Shown here in pieces: positions 3,864 through 47,473 of a DNA stretch of 64,000 nucleotides; position 1 is the stretch's first letter; each line of letters opens with the position of its first letter. Below the pieces are notes generated by a model that searched no databases, had not been told where the DNA came from, and was given only the letters and a program-made list of their open reading frames with translations. This DNA comes from Parcubacteria group bacterium GW2011_GWA2_40_23 (lineage in GTDB: Bacteria > Patescibacteriota > Patescibacteriia > UBA11705 > JABHMO01), in NCBI GenBank assembly GCA_000996245.1, contig LBYP01000002.1, forward strand, positions 5,352-69,351, written 5' to 3'. The position numbers and the translations under genes are program-made.

Positions 3864-4706
3864 ATGATAGACACTCATGCCCATGTTAATTTTAGCACCT
3901 TTAAAGATGATGCTGATGCAGTAATTCAATCAGCTTTAGATAAAAAAATTGCTATTATTAATGTTGGGTCGCAAATCAGCACTAGTCGTCGTGCCGTCGA
4001 GTTGGCCGCTAAGTATCCTCGTGTGTTTGCAGCTATTGGTTTACATCCGATTCAATTACAGGATGAAGAAGTAATTGAGGAGGGAATCACTTTCACTACA
4101 CGGAAAGAAGAGTTTAACTACTCAACATACAAAGAGTTGGCTAAACAGAAACATGTCATCGCTATTGGTGAGACTGGTTTGGATTATTACCATATTCAAG
4201 AAAGGCCTGAATTTAAAGAGATTGTTGAAGATCAGAAGAAAGTTTTTCATCAACATATAGATTTGGCAAATGAAATGAAATTGCCCATGATCATTCATAC
4301 CCGAAGTGGTAAAAATAATAGTGATGCGGCGTGCATCGATATTCTCTCGGAGTTAAGAAAAAATAAACCTAAATATGGTGGAGTTATGCATTGCTATGCT
4401 GGTCCGCCTGAATTGATTAAGGATTTTGTGGCCCTGGATATGTATATTAGTTTTAACGGTATTTTAACTTTTGATAAAACGGGACTCATCGAAAAAATCT
4501 TGTTCTCAACACCCGAAGATCGAATTCTAACTGAAACCGATTGTCCTTATCTAACTCCTGCGCCATATAGAGGCAAACGTAATGAACCGGCCTATGTGGA
4601 TTTTGTAGTTTCTAAAATCGCTGAACTAAAAAATCGTGAATTTGCTGAAATTGATCTTTTAACGACCAGAAACGCAGAACGACTTTTTCATATCGCTTTA
4701 CAATAG
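3864..4706 (+). CDS. tatD: TatD-family metal-dependent DNase/hydrolase
   Basis: N-terminal MIDTHAHVNF (HxH metal motif) and a TIM-barrel-sized ORF. Confidence 0.85.
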   Translation: MIDTHAHVNFSTFKDDADAVIQSALDKKIAIINVGSQISTSRRAVELAAKYPRVFAAIGLHPIQLQDEEVIEEGITFTTRKEEFNYSTYKELAKQKHVIAIGETGLDYYHIQERPEFKEIVEDQKKVFHQHIDLANEMKLPMIIHTRSGKNNSDAACIDILSELRKNKPKYGGVMHCYAGPPELIKDFVALDMYISFNGILTFDKTGLIEKILFSTPEDRILTETDCPYLTPAPYRGKRNEPAYVDFVVSKIAELKNREFAEIDLLTTRNAERLFHIALQ

Positions 4707-4770
4707 GATTTTATGATCAAGCTTCGTATTGTGACTTATAAACAAGAATGCTTGATTTTTTTTTATTTTC

Positions 4771-5097
4771 ATGATAGATTGTAGGTGCTTTTCTATACCT
4801 ATGCAAAATTCTAAGAATGAGAAAGTTTGGTGGCAACCGGCCATCGAAATCTTTGTTCAAGTCTCTGGATGGATTGTATTCCCGCTACTCATCGGTATTT
4901 ATTTAGGCCGATGGTTACAGGAAAAATGGGGACATGAACCGTGGATATATATAGGTTGTGTTGCGGCTGCTTTCATTATTACAAATGTGGGTTTAATACT
5001 GATTGTTTTAAAGGCGGCCAAGAAAATGCAAAAAGTCATCGACGAATCCGAAAAACAAGTTCAGAATCACAAAGAGACTGAGCAAGTAAAAAAATAA
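4771..5097 (+). CDS. Small membrane protein preceding atpB, probably AtpZ/AtpI-like. An alternative ATG at 4801 has AGGTG upstream.
   Basis: Two TM segments, its position immediately 5' of atpB, and a Gly-rich C-terminal TM segment (GIYLGRWLQEKWG). Confidence 0.4.
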   Translation: MIDCRCFSIPMQNSKNEKVWWQPAIEIFVQVSGWIVFPLLIGIYLGRWLQEKWGHEPWIYIGCVAAAFIITNVGLILIVLKAAKKMQKVIDESEKQVQNHKETEQVKK

Positions 5098-5100
5098 TAT

Positions 5101-6006
5101 ATGGCTCAAAGTGGTCACGCGACAACTGAAGTGCAAGAAATAGAAACTGCTCAAACAGAAGAGGCAGTTACGCTTGGTCACAATTCTACGGATGCAAAAA
5201 CAGAAGTTTCGCACGAAGCTACTTTAGCGGCAGAACCAATTGCTCATTTTGGTGCTTTCCCAATTACAAATTCTTTATTAAATACCTGGATAGTTGTCGC
5301 TATCCTTTTTGTTTTTGCCATTGTTTTACGATCTAAATTGAAAATAATTCCAAAGGGTTTGCAGAATCTATTTGAAATTGTAGTTGATGGTGCCTTGAAT
5401 CTGTGCGACTCAGTAACTAATGACCGCAAAAAAACCTTAAAAGTTTTTCCAATCGTTTTTAGTTTCTTTATATTCATTTTAATTGCTAATTGGATGGGTT
5501 TAGTCCCGGGAATTGGTTCAATCGGATTTATTGAAACTGAAGGAGCTCATAGTATTTTTGTCCCATATTTTCGTGGTGGTACGGCCGATTTAAATACAAC
5601 ATTAGCTTTAGCTTTGATTGCAGTTATTGGTTCGAATATTTTCGGTATTATAGCAGTGGGCGGCTGGAAGTATTTTAATAAATTTGTAAATCTAAAAATT
5701 TTGGCTCGAATCCCATTTACGATAAAAAAGGATCCAAGTGTCATCATTGTTAACCCTATTAAGTTTTTTGTGGGTATTATAGAAATTATCGGTGAAGTGG
5801 CAAAAATTGCTTCGCTCTCTTTTCGGCTTTTTGGAAATGTTTTTGCTGGCGAGGTTCTACTTTCATCATTAGCTGTTATTTTGGCCTTTGGATTACCAAT
5901 ACCTTTTATGTTTTTGGAAGTTATAGTAGGTGTTATTCAGGCATTAATATTTGGCATGTTGACTTTGGTTTATTTCAGCATTGCCATGACTGAAGAAGAA
6001 CATTAA
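5101..6006 (+). CDS. atpB: F0 ATP synthase subunit a, carrying an unusual ~55-aa hydrophilic N-terminal extension
   Basis: Conserved Arg region LSFRLFGNVFAGE and multiple TM helices. Confidence 0.85.
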   Translation: MAQSGHATTEVQEIETAQTEEAVTLGHNSTDAKTEVSHEATLAAEPIAHFGAFPITNSLLNTWIVVAILFVFAIVLRSKLKIIPKGLQNLFEIVVDGALNLCDSVTNDRKKTLKVFPIVFSFFIFILIANWMGLVPGIGSIGFIETEGAHSIFVPYFRGGTADLNTTLALALIAVIGSNIFGIIAVGGWKYFNKFVNLKILARIPFTIKKDPSVIIVNPIKFFVGIIEIIGEVAKIASLSFRLFGNVFAGEVLLSSLAVILAFGLPIPFMFLEVIVGVIQALIFGMLTLVYFSIAMTEEEH

Positions 6007-7006: not shown

Positions 7007-7549
7007 ATGTCCCAGACTTCTACAATTAAACATTATGCTACTGCCTTGGTGGAACTTGGTATTGAAAACCAATGTTATGAAGCTTTAGTGGCTGACTTAG
7101 TAGATGTTGATTCTAAGATCAATGAGAATTTAGAATTTAAAAAGTATTTAACCGACAAGCATGTAACTTTTACTAAAAAACAAGAAGCTTTAAAAAACAC
7201 TTTTCAGGATTTTATCAGCGATAAAACATATAATTTTTTATATTTATTGATTAAAGATGGAAAGCTTCTGGATTTATCATCAATATTAAAGATTGCCGCT
7301 AAAACACATTTAGAATCGCAGGATTTGTTTGAGGTTATGGTGGAATCAGTTATTCCTTTGACTGTAGCTCAGGAAAAGAAGATTCAAGAAAAATTGTCAC
7401 AAACGATTAAGCAAAAATTAATTACCAAAAATATAATTAATCCCGAAATTATCGGCGGTTTAAAAATTTTCTTAGGCGACACTGAGATAGATGGCAGTAT
7501 TCGCGGAAAAATTTTGCGACTAAAGAAAAAGATTGAGGATTACGAATAA
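7007..7549 (+). CDS. atpH: F1 ATP synthase subunit delta (OSCP)
   Basis: Operon position, size, and an OSCP-like helical N-terminal domain. Confidence 0.7.
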
Positions 7550-7565
7550 ATTATCAAATAACAAT

Positions 7566-9104
7566 ATGGTACAAAAAAAAGACGATTACGTAATAGAAGC
7601 CTTAAAGAAACAAATTAATGAGTTCAAAGAACATGTATCAGTTGATACTGTTGGACGTGTTTTGGAAGTGGGCGATGGTATTGCCAAAATATCAGGACTT
7701 TCGAATGTTATGTATTCAGAAATGCTAGATTTTGGTTCTGGTGTCTTCGGTGTTGCTTTAAATCTTGAAGAGGATGCAGTCGGTGCCATGATTTTGGGTG
7801 ACTGGTTAAAGATTAAAGAAGGTGATGTCGTTAAAAGTACTGGACGTGTGTTGGAAGTTCCAGTGGGCGAGAATTTAATTGGACGTGTGGTTAACCCCTT
7901 GGGTGAAGCTATGGATGGCAAAGGAAAAATTGATTCAAAAATATTTTATCCAGTAGAAAAAATAGCGCCGGGTGTTATTACTCGAAAATCTGTAAATGTC
8001 CCAGTGCAAACTGGTATTAAAGCAGTTGATTCCATGATTCCAATCGGACGTGGTCAACGCGAACTTATTATTGGTGATCGTCAAACAGGCAAGACTGCCA
8101 TTGCTATTGATACAATTATCAACCAAAAAGGAAAAGATTTAATTTGTGTTTACGTTGCGATTGCTCAAAAGGAATCAAAGATTGCTAAGATTGTAGCCAA
8201 GCTCGAAGAAGCCGGTGCTATGGATCACACGATTATTGTTTTGGCGGGTGCTTCTGCTCCAACATCATTAAATTATATTGCGCCTTTTGCTGGTTGTGCC
8301 ATGGCAGAATATTTTATGGATAAGGGCAAGGATGTTTTAATAGTTTATGATGATTTATCAAAACATGCTGTAGCTTATCGCGAAATTTCATTGTTATTAC
8401 GCCGACCACCAGGACGTGAAGCTTATCCTGGAGATGTTTTCTATTTACATTCCAGATTATTAGAAAGATCCGCTCGCTTAGACAAGGAATATGGTGGTGG
8501 TTCTATTACTGCTTTGCCAATTATTGAAACTCAAGCAGGGGACATCTCTGCCTATATTCCCACAAATGTAATTTCAATTACTGATGGACAAATTTTCTTG
8601 GAAAGTGATTTGTTTTATCAGGGTATTCGTCCAGCGATTAATGTGGGTTTATCTGTTTCTCGTGTCGGTTCAAGCGCCCAAATTAAAGCTATGAAAAAAG
8701 TAGCTGGTAAATTACGTTTGGAGGTAGCGCAATATCGAGAATTGGCAGCCTTCGCTCAATTCGGTTCAGATTTAGATGAATCAACTAAGAATCAACTCGA
8801 ACGTGGTAAACGTATTGTTGAAATTTTGAAACAGGGTCAATACGTTCCAATGGCAGTTGAAAAACAAGTTGTGATTCTTTTTGCAGCAATTAAGGGATTA
8901 CTCGATAATGTTGATGTCAGCAAATTAAATGAATTTGAAATTGGTTTACATAATTATTTGGAAACTACAGTTCCAGAGATTTTGAAAGAAATTTTAGAGA
9001 AAAAAGAAATTGATGAAATGCTAGAAGCCAAAATCATTAAAACTATTAATGAATACAAGTCAACGGTAGAAGAACTATTGGTAAAAGCTGAGGCTGATGT
9101 TTAG
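7566..9104 (+). CDS. atpA: F1 ATP synthase subunit alpha
   Basis: Walker A GDRQTGKT. The ATG at 7566 (MVQKK) is preferred over the TTG-extended ORF at 7533, which overlaps atpH. Confidence 0.9.
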
Positions 9105-9216: not shown

Positions 9217-10170
9217 ATGGCTGGTGGAACAAGAGAATTAAAACGTCGTATCAAATCTGTTGCTAGTACTCAAAAGGTAACTAAGGCAATGGAAATGGTC
9301 GCTGCATCAAAAATGCGTCGCGCCATTAATTCGGTTTTGGCTACACGCGATTACTCTAATCTTGCTTGGGCGACTATTATGAACTTGGCACAAAGAACAG
9401 ACTCGGCTTTGCATCCATTATTAGCCAAAAAAGATAAAGTCGAAAGTGTTTGCTTGATTCTAATCAGTTCAAACCGTGGACTTTGCGGTGGATTTAATAT
9501 GCAAGTTGTTCAAAAGGCTATTAACTCAATCAAAAAACACGAAGAGAATGTTAAAGTTACAGATGTAATTACCATGGGAACAAAGGGCCGAGACATTATT
9601 CGTGGTTTTAAATTTAATGTTGCAGCTGATTTTAAAAAACAAGATTTAACTTTAAGAGTTTCCGATGTTTACGCAGTAGCTCATTTGATCATAAAAGATT
9701 TTACTTCTGGGAAATACGATAAAGTTTTTGTGGCTTTTACAGATTTTGTTTCAACTTTAAAGCAAGAACCGCGCGTTAAACAATTATTACCGATCGATCA
9801 AGAACCAGATGAATATCTTGGTGTAGTTGGAAAGAGTGCAGGCGTTGGTACTACAAAAAAGTTTATTCAAGCCAAAGCTGAAAAATATTTGAAAAAAGGC
9901 GAATATTCTTATGAATATGTTTTCGAACCTAATGCTAAAACTGTTTTAGAAGAAATGTTGCCACGTTTAATCGAAACTCAGATCTATCAGGCTGTTTTGG
10001 AATCTGAAGCATCCGAACACAGTGCCAGAATGTTCTCTATGCGCAATGCTTCTGAAGCTGCTTCGGACATGATTAGCGATTTATCATTATCATATAACCG
10101 TGCTCGTCAAGCTGGTATTACGCAGGAAATTGCGGAAATCAGTTCTGCGGCTGAATCTTTAAAAAAATAA
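9217..10170 (+). CDS. atpG: F1 ATP synthase subunit gamma
   Basis: Operon position, and conserved N-terminal (IKSV..TQKVTKAMEMVAASK) and C-terminal helices. Confidence 0.85.
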   Translation: MAGGTRELKRRIKSVASTQKVTKAMEMVAASKMRRAINSVLATRDYSNLAWATIMNLAQRTDSALHPLLAKKDKVESVCLILISSNRGLCGGFNMQVVQKAINSIKKHEENVKVTDVITMGTKGRDIIRGFKFNVAADFKKQDLTLRVSDVYAVAHLIIKDFTSGKYDKVFVAFTDFVSTLKQEPRVKQLLPIDQEPDEYLGVVGKSAGVGTTKKFIQAKAEKYLKKGEYSYEYVFEPNAKTVLEEMLPRLIETQIYQAVLESEASEHSARMFSMRNASEAASDMISDLSLSYNRARQAGITQEIAEISSAAESLKK

Positions 10171-10189
10171 TTCAATTTAAAAATAGTAA

Positions 10190-11563
<1,374 letters not shown>

Positions 11564-12616: not shown

Positions 12617-12707
12617 TATGTCAAATGTAAAACAGTATAAAAGAAGGGAAAAGGGAAAAGGGATATGGGGTATGGGAGTTAGATCTTCCCTTATACCTTA
12701 CCCCATA

Positions 12708-13490
12708 ATGCTTACCCCAAATAAATTGTTTTTTTGTTTTCTTGCTTTTTTGATTATGCTTACAGGTTGTACTAAAGTAGGTGATTATTCTTTCGTCAAT
12801 TATGGACTTAACACCAAGACCAATGAAATAGTAAAATCCGCAGATGGTCAATCCGTTTCTTGGGTATCACAAGATGTAAGTGGCGAAAAAGTAATGAACA
12901 GAATTTTTTCCGCAACAAACACCGGTAAAAACAAAACAGAACTTTTGAGTATGGAATTAGAGAAGGAACGTTCTTTACGTATTTTAGGTTTTTATCCAGA
13001 GAATAGCGTTTTCGTTTATGCTATCGAATATCAAAATCCAAACTTTGGAGTTGCTGTACAACGAGAAACTTTTTATAAATTTTTTAATGAAGATAATTCA
13101 CACAGTATTGGTAAAGATTATTTACGATTTTTCAAAACAGATCGTGGTGTCATGGGCTTAAGAGTCGGTGATGTCTTAGCTTACTATCAACTATCAATGA
13201 ACAATGCCTATGCGGTTGATTCTAAAAGTAATTACATCCAAGATAGTAAGGTAAAAGCATTATTTACAGATGCACAATTAACTCCTGATCTTAAAAAAAT
13301 TGTCTATACTTTTGAATATGAACCAGCAACTCAAGGCTATAATCAGAATAAGCTAATGGTCAGCGATTTTTATGGGGAGAATCGCAAGGAACTTGTCGCC
13401 TCAGACAAAAGTATTGATATTCTTGAAATGATTGGCAATGATAAAGTTAAGGTCAAAGTCGGGGATGAAGAAAAAGAGTTTTCCTTTTAA
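12708..13490 (+). CDS. Lipoprotein of unknown function
   Basis: Signal peptide with lipobox LTGC (MLTPNKLFFCFLAFLIMLTGC). The internal ATG at 12708 is preferred over 12618. Confidence 0.55.
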   Translation: MLTPNKLFFCFLAFLIMLTGCTKVGDYSFVNYGLNTKTNEIVKSADGQSVSWVSQDVSGEKVMNRIFSATNTGKNKTELLSMELEKERSLRILGFYPENSVFVYAIEYQNPNFGVAVQRETFYKFFNEDNSHSIGKDYLRFFKTDRGVMGLRVGDVLAYYQLSMNNAYAVDSKSNYIQDSKVKALFTDAQLTPDLKKIVYTFEYEPATQGYNQNKLMVSDFYGENRKELVASDKSIDILEMIGNDKVKVKVGDEEKEFSF

Positions 13491-13500
13491 GTAAATTATG

Positions 13501-13532
13501 AAGAGGCGAGCTAGGCTCGTCTCTTTTTGTTT
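13501..13532 (+). terminator. Intrinsic terminator (GAGGCGAGC-tagg-GCTCGTCTC followed by TTTTTGTTTT)
   Basis: 9-bp stem with one G.U pair, plus a U tract. Its two halves recur as direct repeats at 14270-14280 and 14325-14341. Confidence 0.6.
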
Positions 13533-13705
13533 TCATATAAATATCAATTGTCTAGTAGAGGAGAATATGGATAATTTGTAATTCGTAAAATAATGTTTAA
13601 ATTTAGCTAAAATAAGTAAGTGTCCATATGATTCCTGTTGACAAACATAAGAAAGTATGTTATTGTTATGGCAATTGAACCTGTGCTACAACGATGGAGG
13701 AATCC

Positions 13706-13990
13706 ATGGATCTGATCGGATTGGACATGAAGGCTCGTCAGGCTCGGGAGAAGTTCACGGTCGTGACCAAGCTGGGTGATGCGGTCTGGACGCCGGCGGA
13801 GATCAACCGACTGGTGCACCAGTACAGAACCATCATCAGCACGCTTCCCAGGATGCCCTCCGTCGCGATTCTCGCGGGAGAGTACTCCAAGGACCAGCTC
13901 GTCGCGTTCCTCGGGACGGACAACTTCACCGTCGAGCTGATGGTCGGTCGCCAGAACCCCAAGCTGCCGTTCAGCGCTCCGATGCTCTGA
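13706..13990 (+). CDS. Small GC-rich protein, paralogue 1 (94 aa), unknown family
   Basis: GGAGGA SD 5 nt upstream. Shares KFTVVT..G..VW...RL...PR.SVAI.AGE.SK...LGTD.F.VEL.V with the next ORF. Confidence 0.5.
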   Translation: MDLIGLDMKARQAREKFTVVTKLGDAVWTPAEINRLVHQYRTIISTLPRMPSVAILAGEYSKDQLVAFLGTDNFTVELMVGRQNPKLPFSAPML

Positions 13991-14020
13991 GCGCGGCAAG
14001 TTCGAAAGAGAGGAACGGAC

Positions 14021-14248
14021 ATGCTGGTTCTGTTGACTCCTGCCAAGTTCACCGTCGTGACCTTGTTCGGTTTTGGGGTGTGGCATAAGGACGAGGTTCA
14101 ACGTCTGGCGAACAGGCTGAGAGCCTGCGTCTACACGTATCCAAGGAGGCTTTCGGTCGCGATCATCGCGGGAGAGCACTCCAAGGCTTCGATCGTGGAC
14201 GTCCTCGGTACGGACGACTTCGGCGTCGAGCTGAAGGTCAAGTGCTAG
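14021..14248 (+). CDS. Small GC-rich protein, paralogue 2 (75 aa)
   Basis: AGAGAGGAA SD. About 45% identical to paralogue 1 over the shared core. Confidence 0.5.
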   Translation: MLVLLTPAKFTVVTLFGFGVWHKDEVQRLANRLRACVYTYPRRLSVAIIAGEHSKASIVDVLGTDDFGVELKVKC

Positions 14249-14269
14249 AAACCAGTCACTCAAGGTTTC

Positions 14270-14341
14270 AAGAGGCGAGCAGCTTCGTAGTTGCTCGCCT
14301 TTTAAATTTTAGGAAATGAGACAACTCGTCTCTTTTTGTTT
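14270..14341 (+). terminator. Composite terminator: GAGGCGAGC...GCTCGCC+TTTT, then GAGAC-loop-GTCTC+TTTTTGTTT
   Basis: Two hairpins with U tracts. The outer 11 and 17 nt duplicate the 13501-13532 terminator. Confidence 0.5.
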
Positions 14342-14364
14342 ATTATGCTAATATTTACTTGAAT

Positions 14365-17337
14365 ATGAGCTTATTAGAATCATCAAACAAAGAGCAGCTT
14401 TCAGCTATTATGCATGAGGCTGGGCCTCAGCTGATCGTTGCCGGAGCGGGGACGGGCAAGACGCGAGTAATTACAGCCCGTATAGCTTATTTAATTACAG
14501 AAAAAAACATAAATGTCGACGAAATTCTGGCTTTGACTTTTACTGACAAAGCAGCCGAAGAAATGGAAGAACGTGTAGATAAAATGTTGCCTTATGGCTA
14601 TGTCGACTTGTGGATTTCAACTTTTCACTCCTTTTGTGACAAACTATTAAAACGCCACGCTCTCGATATTGGACTCTCTAACAATTATAAACTTATAAAC
14701 GAAACTGAGGCTTGGTTACTGATTAAAAAGAATTTAGCGCGTTTTGATTTGGATTATTACCGTCCGCTTGGTAATCCAACCAAATTTATTCATGCTTTGC
14801 TAAAACATTTTTCGCGTTGTAAAGATGAGGGCATTTCGGCCGAAGAATATTTGGAATTTGCTGATGGTTTAAAATTGGACTTGGATGTAACTGATTATGT
14901 AAAAAAATTAGATTTGCCAGAAGACTTTGCGGAACTGAAGAAAGAAGAAAAACAAGCGTTGCTCAAACAGGAAATTATTCGAATTAATGAAATCGCTAAG
15001 GCATATCACACATATCAACAAATATTAATCGAAAATGATTGCTTGGATTTTGGCGATTTGCACAATTACGCCATTAAACTTTTTAAAGATCGTCCCTTGA
15101 TTTTAGATAAATATCGACGTCAATTTAAATATATACTTGTCGATGAATTTCAGGACACAAATTTTGTTCAATATGAACTCATCAAGCTTTTAGCAGCTCC
15201 CAAAAATAATTTGACAGTGGTGGGGGATGATGACCAGTCAATTTATAAATTCCGAGGAGCTTCTATTAGTAATATCATGCAATTTAAAGAAGATTACCCA
15301 AACGCGCAGGAAGTTGTCTTAACGGAAAACTATCGATCGGCGCAGGAAATTTTAGATTTGTCATATAATTTTATTAAGCAAAATGATCCTAATCGGTTGG
15401 AAGCGAAGTTGAATATCAATAAAAAATTAAAATCGAATAAAACTGAGCAGGGAGTTATCGATCACAAACATTTTGAAACTATCGATGCTGAAGCGCAGTT
15501 TGTTATAAGTCAGATTCGAGAAATACAAAAAGTAACTCAGTGCGAGTGGAAACAATTTGCCATATTGGTACGTGCCAATGAAAGCGCTAATATTTTTATT
15601 AGTTATTTAGATTCCGCAAATATTCCATATCAGTTCTTAGCATTACGTGGATTGTATACGAAGCCAGTCATTGTTGATTTGCTCAACTACCTAAAGTTGT
15701 TAGATGATTATCATGAGGGAGCTTCGGTTTATCGATTGTTAAATTTCCCATGTTTCAAATTAAAAACTGATCAAATCATCAAAATTGTTCATTATGCAAA
15801 GCAAAAAAGTTTTTCATTGTACGACACGTTGAAGAAGATTGTTATAATTCCTGGTATTGAAATGGAAACAATAACTCAGGTTGGGAAAATATATGCTCAG
15901 GTTGAAGCTGATACTGCTTTGGCACAAAAGAAACGTCCGACCGAAGTCTTGCTAAATTTTTTATACACTTCCGGTTATTTAGAACACGTAAAAAATTTGG
16001 ACGAAAAAATTGCTAAAGAAAATTTAGATTATATCCAACAGTTTTTTCAAAAAGTTAAAGAGATAGAAACCACTTACGAAGATGCGCGCATTAAAGATAT
16101 AGTCGAGGTTTTTGATTTAGAATTGCAATCTGGCGAAGCTGGGCGATTGGCTTTTGATGTTGAAACAGGTCCAGACATGGTAAAGGTCATGACAGTGCAT
16201 GGATCAAAAGGTTTGGAGTTTGACTATGTTTTCTTGCCAAATCTTGTCGACCGTAAATTCCCAACAGACGAACGCAAAGAGGCTATCGAGATTCCAGCAG
16301 CCTTGATTGAAGAAAAACTGCCCGAAGGTAATTTCCATTTAGAAGAAGAACGCCGACTTTTTTATGTGGCGATGACTCGAGCGCGACGTGGTTTATTTTT
16401 TACATCGGCAGAGGATTATGGCGGAGTACGCAAAAAAAGGTTATCGAGATTTTTAATAGAAATGGGTTATAAAAAAGATTATGACATCCAATCGACTGAA
16501 ACTATTTTAATCAAGCCAAGTAAATCATCAGCAGTTGATAAATTTGTTTATGAATTACCAAAAAGATTTAGCTTTTCGCAAATTGCAACTTACGAAAAAT
16601 GTCCTTTACAATACAAATACGGAAATATTTTAAAAATCCCAGCTTTTGGCAGTCATTATTTTACTTTTGGTACAATTATCCACTCAACTTTGCAGAAATT
16701 TCTAGAAGAATCGTATCAAGTTAATAATAATGTTCAAGAAGATTTATTTAGCAATATAAAAAAGACGATTAAAAAGGGAACTTTGCCCTTGGATCGATTG
16801 TATCAAGTTTATGATGATGTTTGGTTTGATGATTGGTTCCAAGATCCTAAGCAGAAAGAAGAATATTATAAAAAAGGAAAAGCTTTGCTGAAAAGTTTTC
16901 ATGCTGATTTTAATTCAGAGTTACCAGAAGTAAGAAATCTCGAAATATCATTTAAATTGCCAGTCGGCCCATATTTCTTTTCTGGTAGAATTGATCGAGT
17001 CGATAATTTAGAGTCTGGTTTAGTGCAGATCATTGATTATAAAACCGGGCAAGCCAAGGATGATAAATTAACAACAGATGACAAACGTCAACTTTTATTT
17101 TATCAGATTGCGGCCGAGGAAGCCTTAAAGTTGAAAGTTGAAAAGATGACATACCATTATTTAGAAGAAAATAAGAAAATATCTTTTATGGGTAAAGAAA
17201 AAGACAAGGAAGAATTAAAGAAAAGATTTATTGAAGATATTGAATTGATCAAGGCACAGAAATTCGAAGCCACGCCAAGTCCTTATGTTTGTGGTAGTTG
17301 CGATTATCGAAATATTTGTGAGCATAAAAAATTGTAA
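14365..17337 (+). CDS. UvrD/PcrA-family ATP-dependent DNA helicase with a C-terminal PD-(D/E)XK Cas4/RecB-like nuclease domain
   Basis: Walker A AGAGTGKT, DEFQD (motif II), and a C-terminal Cys cluster (CPLQYKYG ... CGSCDYRNIC). The ATG at 14365 is preferred over TTG at 14359. Confidence 0.85.
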   Translation: MSLLESSNKEQLSAIMHEAGPQLIVAGAGTGKTRVITARIAYLITEKNINVDEILALTFTDKAAEEMEERVDKMLPYGYVDLWISTFHSFCDKLLKRHALDIGLSNNYKLINETEAWLLIKKNLARFDLDYYRPLGNPTKFIHALLKHFSRCKDEGISAEEYLEFADGLKLDLDVTDYVKKLDLPEDFAELKKEEKQALLKQEIIRINEIAKAYHTYQQILIENDCLDFGDLHNYAIKLFKDRPLILDKYRRQFKYILVDEFQDTNFVQYELIKLLAAPKNNLTVVGDDDQSIYKFRGASISNIMQFKEDYPNAQEVVLTENYRSAQEILDLSYNFIKQNDPNRLEAKLNINKKLKSNKTEQGVIDHKHFETIDAEAQFVISQIREIQKVTQCEWKQFAILVRANESANIFISYLDSANIPYQFLALRGLYTKPVIVDLLNYLKLLDDYHEGASVYRLLNFPCFKLKTDQIIKIVHYAKQKSFSLYDTLKKIVIIPGIEMETITQVGKIYAQVEADTALAQKKRPTEVLLNFLYTSGYLEHVKNLDEKIAKENLDYIQQFFQKVKEIETTYEDARIKDIVEVFDLELQSGEAGRLAFDVETGPDMVKVMTVHGSKGLEFDYVFLPNLVDRKFPTDERKEAIEIPAALIEEKLPEGNFHLEEERRLFYVAMTRARRGLFFTSAEDYGGVRKKRLSRFLIEMGYKKDYDIQSTETILIKPSKSSAVDKFVYELPKRFSFSQIATYEKCPLQYKYGNILKIPAFGSHYFTFGTIIHSTLQKFLEESYQVNNNVQEDLFSNIKKTIKKGTLPLDRLYQVYDDVWFDDWFQDPKQKEEYYKKGKALLKSFHADFNSELPEVRNLEISFKLPVGPYFFSGRIDRVDNLESGLVQIIDYKTGQAKDDKLTTDDKRQLLFYQIAAEEALKLKVEKMTYHYLEENKKISFMGKEKDKEELKKRFIEDIELIKAQKFEATPSPYVCGSCDYRNICEHKKL

Positions 17338-17396: not shown

Positions 17397-18377
17397 CTAG
17401 TTGGTGAGCACGTGGCTGATGTCCATGTCCGGACTGACGATCAGCTTCTGTGCCGTGTTCTCGCCGATGACCTCGATCGCCTCGTTCGGACCCGTACCCA
17501 GGTTCGGGATGAACCCGATCTGGATGTACGAGTACTGCTCGAGGGGATCGACGTCGCAGCGCACGTCGAAGGCCGTCGTGGTGCCCTTGGGTAGGAAGAT
17601 GTCCGTCAGGTCATGGAAGACGAGCTGCGCGTTCCATCCCTCGGTGTTTACGTAGGGTTGACCCTGGTAGGCCAGGGTGTGGCCACCCGAGATCAGGCTG
17701 CAGTTGCGCACCTTCTCGAAGTGGTCCCCGGTCATCATCATCGACAGCGTGACCTCGGTGAGAACGCCGTCCTCGGCGTAGGCCGTGTCTTCGGCGTCGA
17801 CCATCAGGTAGAACGTGAACAAGTGGACCTGCGAACCTTCGACGAGCAGGTTGCTGGTTTCCTTCTTCCAGACCATGACGGTCGAGAATTGCGGCTCCAT
17901 GTACGGCGCGCAGACTTCTTCGACGGAGCAGTAGAACGTACGGTTGCCCCTGGCGATGGCGTCGTAGAAGGCTTGGAAGTTGCTGTGCCAGACGTTCATC
18001 ATCGCGATCTGCTTCTGCGCCGCGATCCGTCGCAGCTTGTAGGTCGGGATCATGGCGATGGGGTATTTGGGGTCTCCCGCCAAGGCCAGCTTGATCTTCC
18101 AGGTGTTGGTCGTCGCGTTCTGCGTCGCCTTGGCCAGGAACTGGCCCTCGTACTGGAAGTAGTAGCTGATGTTGTCGGTGAAGTTGGTCCACCCGACGCA
18201 GTCGGTGCCGTACCAGTCCGGCAACTGGCCGGTCAGGTTGAAGTAGTCGATGCTTTCCTGGTTGTACGTCTCGGCGACGTACTTGAGGTCGGCGAAGGTC
18301 TGGGGCGGACCGCCCCCGGCGTACGCGGCACTCGAGAAGCACAGGACGGCGAGCAGGGCGATGAGGGTCTTCTTCAT
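17397..18377 (-). CDS. GC-rich secreted protein of unknown function (326 aa)
   Basis: Signal peptide MKKTLIALLAVLCFSSAAYA. GAAGGAGGAA SD. Consensus promoter upstream. Natural amino-acid composition, unlike the overlapping frames. Confidence 0.6.
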   Translation of the reverse strand: MKKTLIALLAVLCFSSAAYAGGGPPQTFADLKYVAETYNQESIDYFNLTGQLPDWYGTDCVGWTNFTDNISYYFQYEGQFLAKATQNATTNTWKIKLALAGDPKYPIAMIPTYKLRRIAAQKQIAMMNVWHSNFQAFYDAIARGNRTFYCSVEEVCAPYMEPQFSTVMVWKKETSNLLVEGSQVHLFTFYLMVDAEDTAYAEDGVLTEVTLSMMMTGDHFEKVRNCSLISGGHTLAYQGQPYVNTEGWNAQLVFHDLTDIFLPKGTTTAFDVRCDVDPLEQYSYIQIGFIPNLGTGPNEAIEVIGENTAQKLIVSPDMDISHVLTN

Positions 18378-18740: not shown

Positions 18741-19364
18741 CTAGAAGTTCCAGACCAGGCGCAGGTACAGCACGTGGTCACCCGCGATCTCCGGCGTGAA
18801 GTCGTAGGCGACCCAGATTCGGCCCGCGCCGAGCAAGATCGAGGGGCCGATGGCCGCCTCGTCGAACGTCTTCTCGGAGAAGAAGTTCTCCTGGACGATG
18901 CCGAACCCAGCGATGTTGCCTGGCTTCATCCAGTCGAGGGTGGTCAGCGTGTAGTAGTTCCGCTGCACGTGCCCCTTGTCGCCGTCGACAGGGAAGTAGA
19001 CGTCGCCCTCGACGCACAGGAGCAGGTCGCTTGGCAAGGGCTGCGTGAGCCAGATGCTCGCGAGAGCGGACATGCCGCCGTCGTTGGTCATCCAGAGACC
19101 TCCCAGGAGCTTGAGGTTCGTCTTCGTCGACAGGACGCTCATCTCCGGCCCGAAGTAGCCGAAGATCATGGAGTTGCCGCGCATTGACACCAGGCCGGTG
19201 GCGTGGGCGTAGATGCCGCCCGTGATGTTCTCGCTGAGCGTGAACGGGGAGAAGGTTCGGCCCAGGGTGACCAGGAACTGGCCGTTGGACTCGACCTTGG
19301 CCTCGGCGGCCGTGGGGATGATCATCGCACACAGCAACAGGATCACGAGCAGGAAGCGCTTCAT
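18741..19364 (-). CDS. GC-rich small outer-membrane beta-barrel-like protein (208 aa)
   Basis: Signal peptide MKRFLLVILLLCAMIIPTAAEA. C-terminus ...YLRLVWNF (alternating hydrophobics ending in Phe). GGAGG SD. TTGACT promoter-like sequence upstream. Confidence 0.5.
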   Translation of the reverse strand: MKRFLLVILLLCAMIIPTAAEAKVESNGQFLVTLGRTFSPFTLSENITGGIYAHATGLVSMRGNSMIFGYFGPEMSVLSTKTNLKLLGGLWMTNDGGMSALASIWLTQPLPSDLLLCVEGDVYFPVDGDKGHVQRNYYTLTTLDWMKPGNIAGFGIVQENFFSEKTFDEAAIGPSILLGAGRIWVAYDFTPEIAGDHVLYLRLVWNF

Positions 19365-19438
19365 CGAAGCCTCCAAAGTGGTGTGACGTCCCGTGAAACA
19401 GGACATTCTAATTTATCATAAATAATAAAAAAGTCAAG

Positions 19439-19797: not shown

Positions 19798-20115
19798 ATG
19801 GATGCACGACAAAAGGTCGTGGCAGTGTTCGATCTTCCGCACGGTGAAGGTCAGGTCGATCTGATGGTCGACATGGCACTTGAGTCCAGCTGGACTGGCC
19901 AAGGAATCGATACTTCGTACTTCATGTTCCACAAGCCGCACTGCGGCGGTCCCATGCGGCCGATCAAGGTGGCGGACAAGAAGATGGTTCTGTACTGCAG
20001 CGGTTGCGTGTTGCGTCTTCAGCTTCTGATCATGAAACTGCCTACGAACCTGGGCGAACTCGGTGAAGCGATCAACGAGACCTGCACGCATTCGGATCTG
20101 CCCTCACGTTTCTAA
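19798..20115 (+). CDS. GC-rich Zn-ribbon-like small protein (105 aa), unknown function
   Basis: AAGGAGGT SD. HKPHCGG...YCSGC Cys/His cluster. Strong terminator follows. Confidence 0.5.
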   Translation: MDARQKVVAVFDLPHGEGQVDLMVDMALESSWTGQGIDTSYFMFHKPHCGGPMRPIKVADKKMVLYCSGCVLRLQLLIMKLPTNLGELGEAINETCTHSDLPSRF

Positions 20116-33697: not shown

Positions 33698-34678
33698 ATG
33701 CGACGTATGTATAATTCAGATAAGCCTATAATTAAACATATCCCCGACTTCCTCGACTACCTCGAGATTGAAAAAGGTCTGGGAAATAAAACGCAAGAAA
33801 ACTACGCGCGTTTTTTACATCGTTTCTCGGAATGGTTGCAGCAGAACAATCAAGAGAAGCTTCTCCCCCACGAATTAAGCCCGGAGCTCGTTTGGGCTTA
33901 TCGTGTATATTTGTCGCGCGAAACAAAATCTAGAAGAAAGAACGAGGACTTTTTGAAAAAATCAACCCAGAATTATTATTTGATTGCCTTGCGCGGATTA
34001 TTGAATTTTTTCACAGAAAGAGATATTAATGCGATTCCTGGTGAAAAAGTTAAACTGGCTAAAAACTTAAAGGAACATAGCATTCATTTTTTAAATCTTG
34101 ATCAAATTAAACAATTATTAGAAGCTCCTGATATTAAACATACTCCTGGTTTAAGAGATCGAGCCATTCTCGAAAGCCTCTTTTCAACTGGATTACGCGT
34201 AGCTGAGCTGGCTAAATTAAATCGAGAAGATTTTAAAGTAAAAGATGGTGTTGTTTTTTTAGAACTTAATGTCATGGGTAAAGGAAGTCATCCTCGAGTA
34301 GTTTATTTTTCCGAGCGAGCTTTAAACTGGATAAAAGCATATTTAGCAAAGCGTGCAGATATTGACCCTGCCCTCTTTATTAATTATAAGCCAGGAAAAA
34401 ATGAAGTTAATGATCGGCGTTTAACGGTTCGTTCGATTGAAGTAATTGTAAAAAAATATGTAAAAATAGCCGGACTACCACTAACAACAACTCCACATAC
34501 GTTGCGACATTCATATGCCACGGACTTGTTGACACAGGGTGTCGATTTGAGGCTTGTTCAGGAGTTTTTGGGTCATCGAAGTATTTCGACGACTCAAATA
34601 TATACTCACGTGACTAACAAGAATCTGCGTGATGTTTACTTGAAATATCATAGTGGCGCACAAGATAAAAAATATTAA
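33698..34678 (+). CDS. Tyrosine recombinase XerC/XerD family
   Basis: C-terminal R..HxxR..Y catalytic motifs (LRHSYATDLL, GHRSISTTQIYTHV). Confidence 0.8.
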   Translation: MRRMYNSDKPIIKHIPDFLDYLEIEKGLGNKTQENYARFLHRFSEWLQQNNQEKLLPHELSPELVWAYRVYLSRETKSRRKNEDFLKKSTQNYYLIALRGLLNFFTERDINAIPGEKVKLAKNLKEHSIHFLNLDQIKQLLEAPDIKHTPGLRDRAILESLFSTGLRVAELAKLNREDFKVKDGVVFLELNVMGKGSHPRVVYFSERALNWIKAYLAKRADIDPALFINYKPGKNEVNDRRLTVRSIEVIVKKYVKIAGLPLTTTPHTLRHSYATDLLTQGVDLRLVQEFLGHRSISTTQIYTHVTNKNLRDVYLKYHSGAQDKKY

Positions 34679-46855: not shown

Positions 46856-47473
46856 ATGAATGCGAAACATCTTCCTCCGCCCACTCCCACGACGCTCTCC
46901 GAAGCGTTTTGGCCCCTGTTCATGACGAACAAAGTGATGGTGCGTTTTGTCGGTGCGTATATCTGCTTCGGCGTGGCAGATGACAGCAACCGACTACTCG
47001 TAGTGTATGCACACGACACTGCCAGCCGATTGCATCTTCCTACACAGGAAGCAATTGCTCGAGCGTTCCCTCTGCGGAATGCCAAACAACAAGAATACAC
47101 CGGACCACATGATCTGCCAGTGTCGTACAGTGACATTCAACGAGTTCGCAACGTGATGCGTTATGAGTTTCTTCAGGAAAACCGGCGCGTCTTACTGCTT
47201 GTTTCGACTCCTGAGGAGTCGGTAGTTGAAAACCAGGAACAACTCATGTTCATCCAATGGAGTAGACCGAACCCACTTCAAATTGCTCGCATCGTCGAAA
47301 CTATTGGTGCGGATCGTGTCCACGTCGTACGAAAAAATGCGCTGGAAACGCGCCTCCTGGTGGAGTTGAAACCCAATGAACGATTGAAGTTCTCTGTGAC
47401 CGGTTGCCACTTCAGCAGCCCCTTTGCAACTGCGGCTCTGTTGCCGGTGCAGTGCGACACCTGCACTGCTTGA
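46856..47473 (+). CDS. Moderately GC-rich 205-aa protein, unknown function
   Basis: AAGGAG SD. Natural composition. Terminator follows. Confidence 0.45.
   Translation: MNAKHLPPPTPTTLSEAFWPLFMTNKVMVRFVGAYICFGVADDSNRLLVVYAHDTASRLHLPTQEAIARAFPLRNAKQQEYTGPHDLPVSYSDIQRVRNVMRYEFLQENRRVLLLVSTPEESVVENQEQLMFIQWSRPNPLQIARIVETIGADRVHVVRKNALETRLLVELKPNERLKFSVTGCHFSSPFATAALLPVQCDTCTA

Follow-up and report, generated by a model that had tools for sequence, protein, structure and literature searches.

A tandem pair of GC-rich small-protein genes, probably a horizontally acquired operon, in a variable intergenic slot of a Patescibacterial genome

We analysed a 64,000-nucleotide (nt) stretch of the genome of Parcubacteria group bacterium GW2011_GWA2_40_23 (contig LBYP01000002.1, positions 5,352 to 69,351; hereafter the window) and two small genes within it, pA and pB, that lie in tandem between a lipoprotein gene and a helicase gene. 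pA and pB are real protein-coding paralogues and form one transcription unit with its own predicted promoter. The pair is probably a horizontally acquired two-gene accessory operon that occupies a variable intergenic slot, as indicated by its composition, its patchy distribution among relatives and its low divergence from the one relative that shares it.

The window is an AT-rich chromosome segment (~35% GC) that is dense in housekeeping genes, including those for ATP synthase, aminoacyl-tRNA synthetases, MreB/MreC and PBP2. GC content rises from ~0.3 to ~0.6 over roughly 13690 to 14260, and the initial annotation, which had been made from the sequence and its open reading frames (ORFs), had correctly labelled the pair GC-rich. 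GC at third codon positions (GC3) is 0.84 in pA and 0.79 in pB, compared with 0.26–0.36 in the neighbouring genes and a window median of ~0.29 (taken over ORFs of at least 200 amino acids (aa)), and the excess is phase-specific along both genes. GC at first and second positions (0.58/0.40 in pA and 0.55/0.38 in pB) is similar to that of native genes. By its GC3, the pair thus shows the atypical composition expected of an acquired islet.

Both ORFs were found as first described (13706–13990, 94 aa; 14021–14248, 75 aa). They are coding, since codon-phase GC, purifying selection and 67 homologues all point to the sense frame. Between the window and L056, a diverged relative, the ratio of nonsynonymous to synonymous substitution (dN/dS) is 0.30–0.39 in the sense frames, whereas a 218-aa antisense ORF has a value of 1.1. 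We reject the antisense ORF as a gene, as the initial annotation had done; it is a by-product of the GC-rich third codon positions. Translation of pA starts at 13706, because an ATG at 13694 is missing in L056 and the family begins with MDL(I/V)G. A GGAGG-type Shine–Dalgarno sequence had been assigned to each gene, which is correct for pA but not for pB, where only GAGAGGA is present. The spacer between the two genes differs by 1 nt between the window and L056.

pA and pB share 35 of 65 aligned residues (54%; BLASTP E 1e-22) and are 48–51% identical in global alignment. The paralogy proposed earlier is thus confirmed, with the accompanying estimate of ~45% identity slightly too low. pB extends from the first strand to just past the last strand of the predicted fold and has neither the N-terminal helix nor the C-terminal tail. 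Since its closest relative is pA (54%) and all other family members are at most 42% identical, pB is a lineage-specific duplicate. Four 28-nt repeats (13750–13777, 13921–13948, 14044–14071 and 14215–14242; 64–75% identity) link the coding segments of the first strand (KFTVVT) and the last strand (NFTVEL), both within and between the genes. This repeat family may point to a fold with internal pseudo-symmetry or to gene conversion.

The arrangement recurs in other assemblies. A 1542-bp Logan contig from SRR29904083 contains the lipoprotein 3' end, ORFs of 98 and 75 aa and the helicase 5' end with exactly the spacing of the window, and a MEGAHIT contig from ENA (L001) is 100% identical over 13812–14389, a region that spans the right junction. 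L056, part of an 87-kb JGI contig with AtpD, AtpC and CvpA 97–99% identical to those of the window, has the same architecture (left hairpin, promoter, GGAGG, pA, spacer, pB and T1) at 92% nt identity. Because the same arrangement is present in two contigs of identical sequence and in the diverged L056, an assembly artefact does not account for the junctions. The initial annotation had named a failure to find the pair elsewhere, together with read evidence of chimerism, as evidence against its reading; L056 encodes pA with 85% and pB with 91% aa identity.

A comparison with the empty site had also been proposed. Two relatives, L057 and L058, are without the pair, and their slot holds a different ORF of ~70 aa with ordinary composition. 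Here, the lipoprotein stop codon is followed by a 68-nt spacer that lacks a terminator, the ~70-aa ORF, T1, T2 and the helicase promoter. The lipoprotein, for which we found no Pfam match, has homologues in L056 (87% aa identity), L057 (73–74%) and L058 (78–80%). Slot contents between cvpA and the helicase gene also differ in four distant relatives (L002, L039, L050 and L003). Presence in the window and L056 and absence from L057 and L058 amount to the patchy distribution expected of an acquired islet. A block of sequence just 5' of the start codon (CTGTGCT..ACAA..GGAG) is similar in both cargo types; on this basis, the swapped DNA extends approximately from the ribosome-binding site to a point just short of T1. 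The helicase of the window is closest to those of Candidatus Kuenenbacteria (64% aa identity) and Falkowbacteria, which places the host among the Patescibacteria of the candidate phyla radiation.

Synonymous divergence (pS) between the window and L056 is 0.17 for pA and 0.15 for pB, which corresponds to ~25% of saturation (0.62 for their codon usage). For the flanking native genes, pS is 0.41–0.67, or 52–79% of their saturation. In the same comparison, nt identity is 0.90–1.00 across the pair, 0.74–0.78 just upstream and 0.73–0.86 in the 5' part of the helicase gene. The simplest reading of these sequence comparisons is that the pair would have been shared between the two lineages after they split, by recombination via the conserved flanks.

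The predicted promoter TTGACA-N17-TATTGT had been noted at 13659–13687; the motif exists but is situated at 13638–13666, ~21 nt further upstream. L056 has TTGACA-N17-TATTAT at this site, though the surrounding 170 nt are only ~74–78% identical. Three predicted hairpins (the left hairpin, T1 and T2) have the features of an intrinsic terminator, a GC-rich stem–loop and a T-run 3' of a gene, and their folding z-scores range from -3.1 to -6.7. The flanking direct repeats recorded in the initial annotation are exact. The 11-nt repeat AAGAGGCGAGC occurs at 13501 and 14270 and is confined to these hairpins within the window, and the 17-nt repeat CTCGTCTCTTTTTGTTT occurs at 13516 and 14325 and nowhere else in the 64 kb (two matches vs 0.03 expected; none of 100 shuffles reaches two). 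The left hairpin (13500–13532) combines the 5' arm of T1 (11/11) with the 3' arm and tail of T2 (17/17). Past the 11-mer and the 17-mer, the similarity is no longer significant (191 of 500 shuffles do equally well).

The left hairpin is found only in pair-bearing genomes; it is kept in L056 and absent from L057 and L058. In the latter two, T1 reads GGCGAGCA-loop-TGCTCGCC-TTT and T2 reads GAGACGA-CTGAA-CTCGTCTC-TTTTTGTTT, with the helicase promoter next to it. Since L057 and L058 have the right-hand structure (14267–14341) without the pair, this structure is native and older than the pair. The left terminator is a derived element, a hybrid of T1 and T2 arms. The initial annotation had proposed that the pair inserted into the lipoprotein terminator, which became duplicated at both ends. 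Our comparisons do not support this as stated, as the lipoprotein gene has no terminator in L057 and L058 and the right-hand structure is already present there. L057 has a longer T2 stem. In L056 this stem is disrupted: at 7590–7610 (window 14318–14332), the 5' arm has GTCTC in place of GAGAC and the hairpin is therefore lost, whereas T1 is 100% conserved. Coordinates of these and other features are collected in Table 1.

Table 1. Features of the pA/pB locus and other GC3-rich genes of the window
Feature	Position	Strand	Remarks
Lipoprotein gene, lineage-specific, lipobox LTGC	12618..13490	+	Native, GC3 0.26; left border of variable slot
Left intrinsic terminator (predicted), 12-bp hairpin GAAGAGGCGAGC-TAG-GCTCGTCTCTTT + T-run	13500..13536	+	-17.7 kcal/mol, z -4.5
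Sigma-70-like promoter (predicted) TTGACA-N17-TATTGT, TG before -10	13638..13666	+	Consensus match only, 10/12; in AT-rich DNA
pA ribosome-binding site GGAGG	13696..13700	+	6 nt before ATG 13706; kept in L056
pA, 94 aa, full-length family member	13706..13990	+	GC3 0.84; L056 85% aa identity, dN/dS 0.39
pB ribosome-binding site GAGAGGA	14007..14013	+	Within 30-nt GC-rich pA–pB spacer
pB, 75 aa, truncated paralogue, core domain only	14021..14248	+	GC3 0.79; L056 91% aa identity, same length, dN/dS 0.30
T1, 15–18-bp hairpin then TTTT	14267..14306	+	Predicted terminator of the pair; native
T2, short hairpin GAGAC-AACTC-GTCTC + TTTTTGTTT	14318..14341	+	Directly 5' of helicase promoter; native
UvrD/PcrA-type helicase fused to nuclease	14365..17337	+	Native, GC3 0.30; right border of slot
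GC3-rich gene, 326 aa, signal peptide	17397-18377	-	GC3 0.91
GC3-rich gene, 221 aa, signal peptide	18741-19406	-	GC3 0.92
Weaker GC3-rich ORF, 105 aa, directly after dciA	19798-20115	+	GC3 0.68
GC3-rich gene, 509 aa	45206-46735	+	GC3 0.95

A word-index search with the pair protein returned nothing besides itself. An exhaustive HMMER search of 1.8 billion proteins with a two-sequence profile (pA and pB) retrieved representatives of 67 clusters (E ≤ 1e-3), almost all with a length of 83–110 aa. They constitute a family of ~93 aa, found in Patescibacteria and uncultured metagenome contigs, with the consensus MDLxGM...R...KFTVLxR...W...E...L......P..P..LILxGE...E.I...LG...F....V.G.DNP.LPF.P. pA matches the profile over residues 1–94 and keeps every motif (FTVL, W, GE and the tail, here GRQNPKLPF). 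pB matches the core only, and its tail is missing. Two members carry NCBI names, ACYC44_00285 from a Patescibacteria group bacterium (E 2.7e-21) and KBD06_01465 from Candidatus Pacebacteria (E 4.2e-19; both from the profile search), and pA is 33–36% identical to them.

In the predicted fold of pA, an N-terminal helix precedes a beta-alpha-beta-beta-alpha-beta core, and a G-x-(D/Q)NP-x-LPF tail forms the C-terminal part. The AlphaFold modelling recommended in the initial annotation yielded a confident result: an AlphaFold2 model calculated from a 65-sequence family alignment has a generic ferredoxin-like fold, with a predicted local distance difference test score (pLDDT) of 93 and a predicted template modelling score (pTM) of 0.81. 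It supersedes a poor model obtained from the two paralogues alone (pLDDT 47). None of the 65 family members tested matches Pfam, NCBIfam or PADLOC, neither pA nor pB matches the PHROGs, and a family profile search of PDB sequences gave no match, in agreement with the earlier impression that the proteins resemble no recognised family. The combination of a significant profile or structural match with signature motifs (e.g., CxxC for HMA, RNP1/RNP2 for RRM) that would mark an ACT, RRM or HMA domain was not found. A tblastn search of phage and plasmid collections found no pA homologue. A degenerate motif scan of IMG/VR gave two matches, which we rejected as chance matches and not family members.

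In 11 independent loci, the family gene is solitary, save for one short-and-long tandem (L052), and no neighbouring gene within 3 kb is conserved across these loci. The L052 tandem, in another Patescibacteria-like metagenome-assembled genome, arose independently: a 75-aa form without the N-terminal helix (3968–4195) lies upstream of a 93-aa full form (4226–4507). The short form is not close to pB and shares 37% identity with its best match, and its GC3 is 0.63 vs 0.34 for the background.

Elsewhere in the family, GC3 is near the local background in ~7 of 10 other loci (for example, 0.37 vs 0.34, 0.42 vs 0.43 and 0.65 vs 0.72). Raised values are found for the short L052 paralogue and for L062 (0.81 vs 0.65), and the pair itself has 0.79–0.84 against a background of 0.29 in both the window and L056. 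The foreign composition of family genes is thus specific to the lineage of the window and L056. Patescibacterial genomes range from 24 to 63% GC (PMC9166423), and since they reach 63%, a GC-rich donor inside the phylum is plausible.

We propose the following course of events for the pair as an acquired operon. The donor would have been a GC-rich bacterium, probably another Patescibacterium. A pA-like gene would have been duplicated, with one copy truncated to give pB. The cargo may have entered the slot through recombination that used the conserved right flank (T1, T2 and the helicase gene) as its anchor, as opposed to through a dedicated mobile element, and the pair would have been exchanged between the window and L056 lineages after they split. 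At its present site, the sigma-70-like promoter in AT-rich DNA would drive the pair, native T1 would terminate its transcription and the left hybrid hairpin would insulate it from the lipoprotein gene. The proteins are most likely small cytoplasmic, non-enzymatic binding modules of the ferredoxin-like type, which is the weakest step of the proposal. From fold and conservation only, the tail G-x-DNP-x-LPF, as the most conserved element, would make a functional contact, and the tail-less pB could be a partner or modulator, for instance in a heterodimer. The tail bears a loose resemblance to peptides that bind the beta sliding clamp, which makes the clamp a candidate partner.

The pair is not the only GC3-rich element of the window (Table 1), a point that the initial annotation had missed. 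The 326-aa and 221-aa genes occupy the same positions in L056, with GC3 of 0.94–0.95 there. Their products are 44% (dN/dS 0.87) and 67% (dN/dS 0.55) identical to the L056 counterparts, respectively, at a pS of 67–85% of saturation, and the flanking core proteins are 91–99% identical. A homologue of the 221-aa gene (37% identity) is situated in the same slot of Kuenenbacteria L002, with a GC3 of 0.67 vs a background of 0.34. Because position and extreme GC3 are kept in diverged relatives, this pattern is not predicted by plain import followed by amelioration.

The 509-aa ORF, with gltX on one side and a WecG/NUDIX gene on the other, is the largest and most GC-rich island of the window. It has only weak matches to HhH and Endonuclease VII/HNH-like Pfam domains and no PHROG match. 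Downstream of it is a 205-aa ORF of intermediate GC content (46856–47473, + strand). The segment at 360–1270 of the window is GC-rich (55–61%) and has neither a codon-phase signal nor a convincing ORF. Rfam gave no match to it, including at E ≤ 1, and a structured RNA or the decayed remains of a GC-rich gene could account for it. On the AT-rich contig L064, two small ORFs on the - strand (4704–5201 and 7314–7532) have GC3 of 0.81 and 0.75 vs a background of 0.28 and lie a few kb from a family member. From this contig, GC3-rich mini-islands may exist in other lineages too. As to further features, L056 has an insertion of ~907 nt, not GC-rich, just upstream of the atpD start (window 10199, within ~10100–10200). 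In the 64-kb window, ARAGORN detected no tRNA or tmRNA genes, and no Rfam family reached its gathering score.

Several points weigh against the explanation as an acquired operon. No GC-rich donor was found, the nearest non-self relative of pA/pB being only ~47% identical. Other GC3-rich genes of the window genome are found at unchanged positions in diverged relatives, an outcome not expected from plain recent transfer, and the same force that acts on them could act on the pair. The low synonymous divergence of the pair could stem from constraint at synonymous sites instead of recent exchange. As to the origin of the left hybrid hairpin, the similarity loses significance outside the two exact repeats, and the promoter and terminators are consensus and energy predictions only. 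The pair might be a long-standing resident whose high GC3 is upheld by a persistent force. Such a force could be selection at synonymous sites, GC-biased conversion or mutation confined to the locus, or a need to function in, or exchange with, a GC-rich partner. In favour of such residence, high GC3 is common to several window genes, of which two keep both position and composition in L056 at a pS of 67–85% of saturation and one has a GC3-rich positional homologue in Kuenenbacteria L002, and synonymous constraint would likewise produce the low pS of the pair. However, L057 and L058 have another gene in the slot, family members in other genomes mostly show no GC3 excess, and no mechanism of this kind is known: a targeted literature search on GC-rich genes or codon usage in Patescibacteria returned nothing relevant besides the phylum-wide GC range. 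We regard long-standing residence as unlikely. It is similarly doubtful that the pair belongs to a distinct class of genes, mini-islands of one or two genes between core genes whose GC3 is held at 0.8–0.95 vs 0.29 and does not decay, and some of which encode secreted proteins with very fast divergence. Such a class would need a locus-specific force. This might take the form of conversion or mutation with a GC bias aimed at these loci, of ongoing replacement at fixed slots by genes out of a GC-rich pool, or of selection because the genes or transcripts function in a partner organism that is GC-rich or are exchanged with it.

Three further explanations are less probable than these. The pair could be cargo of a mobile system that targets hairpins (integron-like, of the IS200/IS605 type or terminator-targeting), with the hairpin halves as attL/attR scars. 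The exact 11-nt and 17-nt repeats of hairpin arms on either side, the left hairpin as a clean hybrid of both right-hand hairpins and the slot content that varies among relatives in the fashion of a cassette array are all in keeping with this. Yet no transposase or integrase adjoins the pair among the 30 window ORFs scanned against Pfam; the only tyrosine recombinase found in that scan (33698–34678) is Xer-like, lies 20 kb from the pair and neighbours an ORF whose product has a POTRA domain of the FtsQ type. Within the 64 kb, the hairpin motifs are restricted to this locus, the boundaries of the GC-rich segment have no terminal inverted repeats, and the right-hand hairpins are present without the pair in L057 and L058. 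In integrons, the R' consensus of the attC core is GTTRRRY, and cassettes are usually promoterless, with IntI and attI adjoining the array. The 3' arm of T1 (GTTGCTC) is mismatched to this consensus, and the pair has its own promoter-like site. We consider a hairpin-targeting system very unlikely. An even smaller chance is given to a toxin–antitoxin, addiction or anti-defence module on a defence or variable island. Two small-protein genes with a patchy distribution would fit such a module, as would three family members elsewhere, one adjoining an MvaI/BcnI endonuclease and methylase (L067), one adjoining HNH and Dnd-associated genes (L055) and one near GmrSD (L053). But both proteins have the same fold and are paralogous, so that two different families are not involved; the family gene mostly stands alone, the 11 loci share no conserved partner gene, and PADLOC, PHROG and Pfam matches are lacking. 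Finally, the abrupt GC jumps at both ends of the segment and the long antisense ORF might suggest an assembly chimera or contaminant, or a non-coding element with spurious ORFs. Recurrence of the junctions in three other assemblies, including a diverged relative, and the evidence for coding in the sense frame (67 homologues, codon-phase GC and purifying selection) reduce the probability of this explanation to almost nil.

An acquired accessory operon thus remains our preferred explanation for the pair. The pair defines an unannotated family of small proteins, at least some of them from Patescibacteria, with a confident model that comprises a ferredoxin-like core and a G-x-DNP-x-LPF tail, and this family could be registered as a new domain family. 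The slot is a clean natural case of cargo swapping between core genes in an uncultured lineage of the candidate phyla radiation, with both the filled and the alternative state recovered, and it illustrates the rearrangement of a promoter and terminators that goes with new cargo. The swap itself is ordinary in kind. More intriguing as a lead is the pattern of GC3-rich mini-islands, some of which keep their position in diverged species. If these islands do not result from repeated transfer, they would reflect a so far unrecognised process that shapes codon composition locally in reduced genomes.

Among known systems, the locus bears some resemblance to integron cassettes with attC hairpins, in that small ORFs lie between related imperfect hairpins and content varies at one site. 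Unlike them, the pair has no adjacent IntI and has its own predicted promoter, the hairpins are predicted to be ordinary terminators with T-runs and there is one such unit in 64 kb. With no fitting attC core, no adjoining IntI and a promoter-like site of its own, we rejected the pair as an integron gene cassette. Insertion as an insertion sequence (IS), a miniature inverted-repeat transposable element (MITE) or an IS200/IS605-type element was rejected for want of a transposase domain (30 ORFs), of boundary inverted repeats and of other copies of the motifs in the window. A type II toxin–antitoxin module was rejected since the two proteins are paralogues and the family is mostly solitary and without a conserved neighbour. 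The pair is most comparable to horizontally acquired islets, with which it shares a sharp composition break, alternative cargo in relatives, core-gene flanks and the absence of mobility genes. In contrast to typical islets, it is very small (~570 bp), its GC3 contrast is extreme (0.8 vs 0.29) and it is one of several such elements. Some of these elements keep position and GC3 across diverged species, a pattern not expected from simple transfer followed by amelioration. At the protein level, pA shares family, length class and motifs with the hypothetical proteins ACYC44_00285 and KBD06_01465; whereas these are single-copy and carry no annotation, pA and pB form a tandem of a long and a truncated member with foreign codon usage. 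The closest known fold class for their core is that of small ferredoxin-like binding domains such as ACT, RRM, HMA, PII/PstA-like and MzrA.

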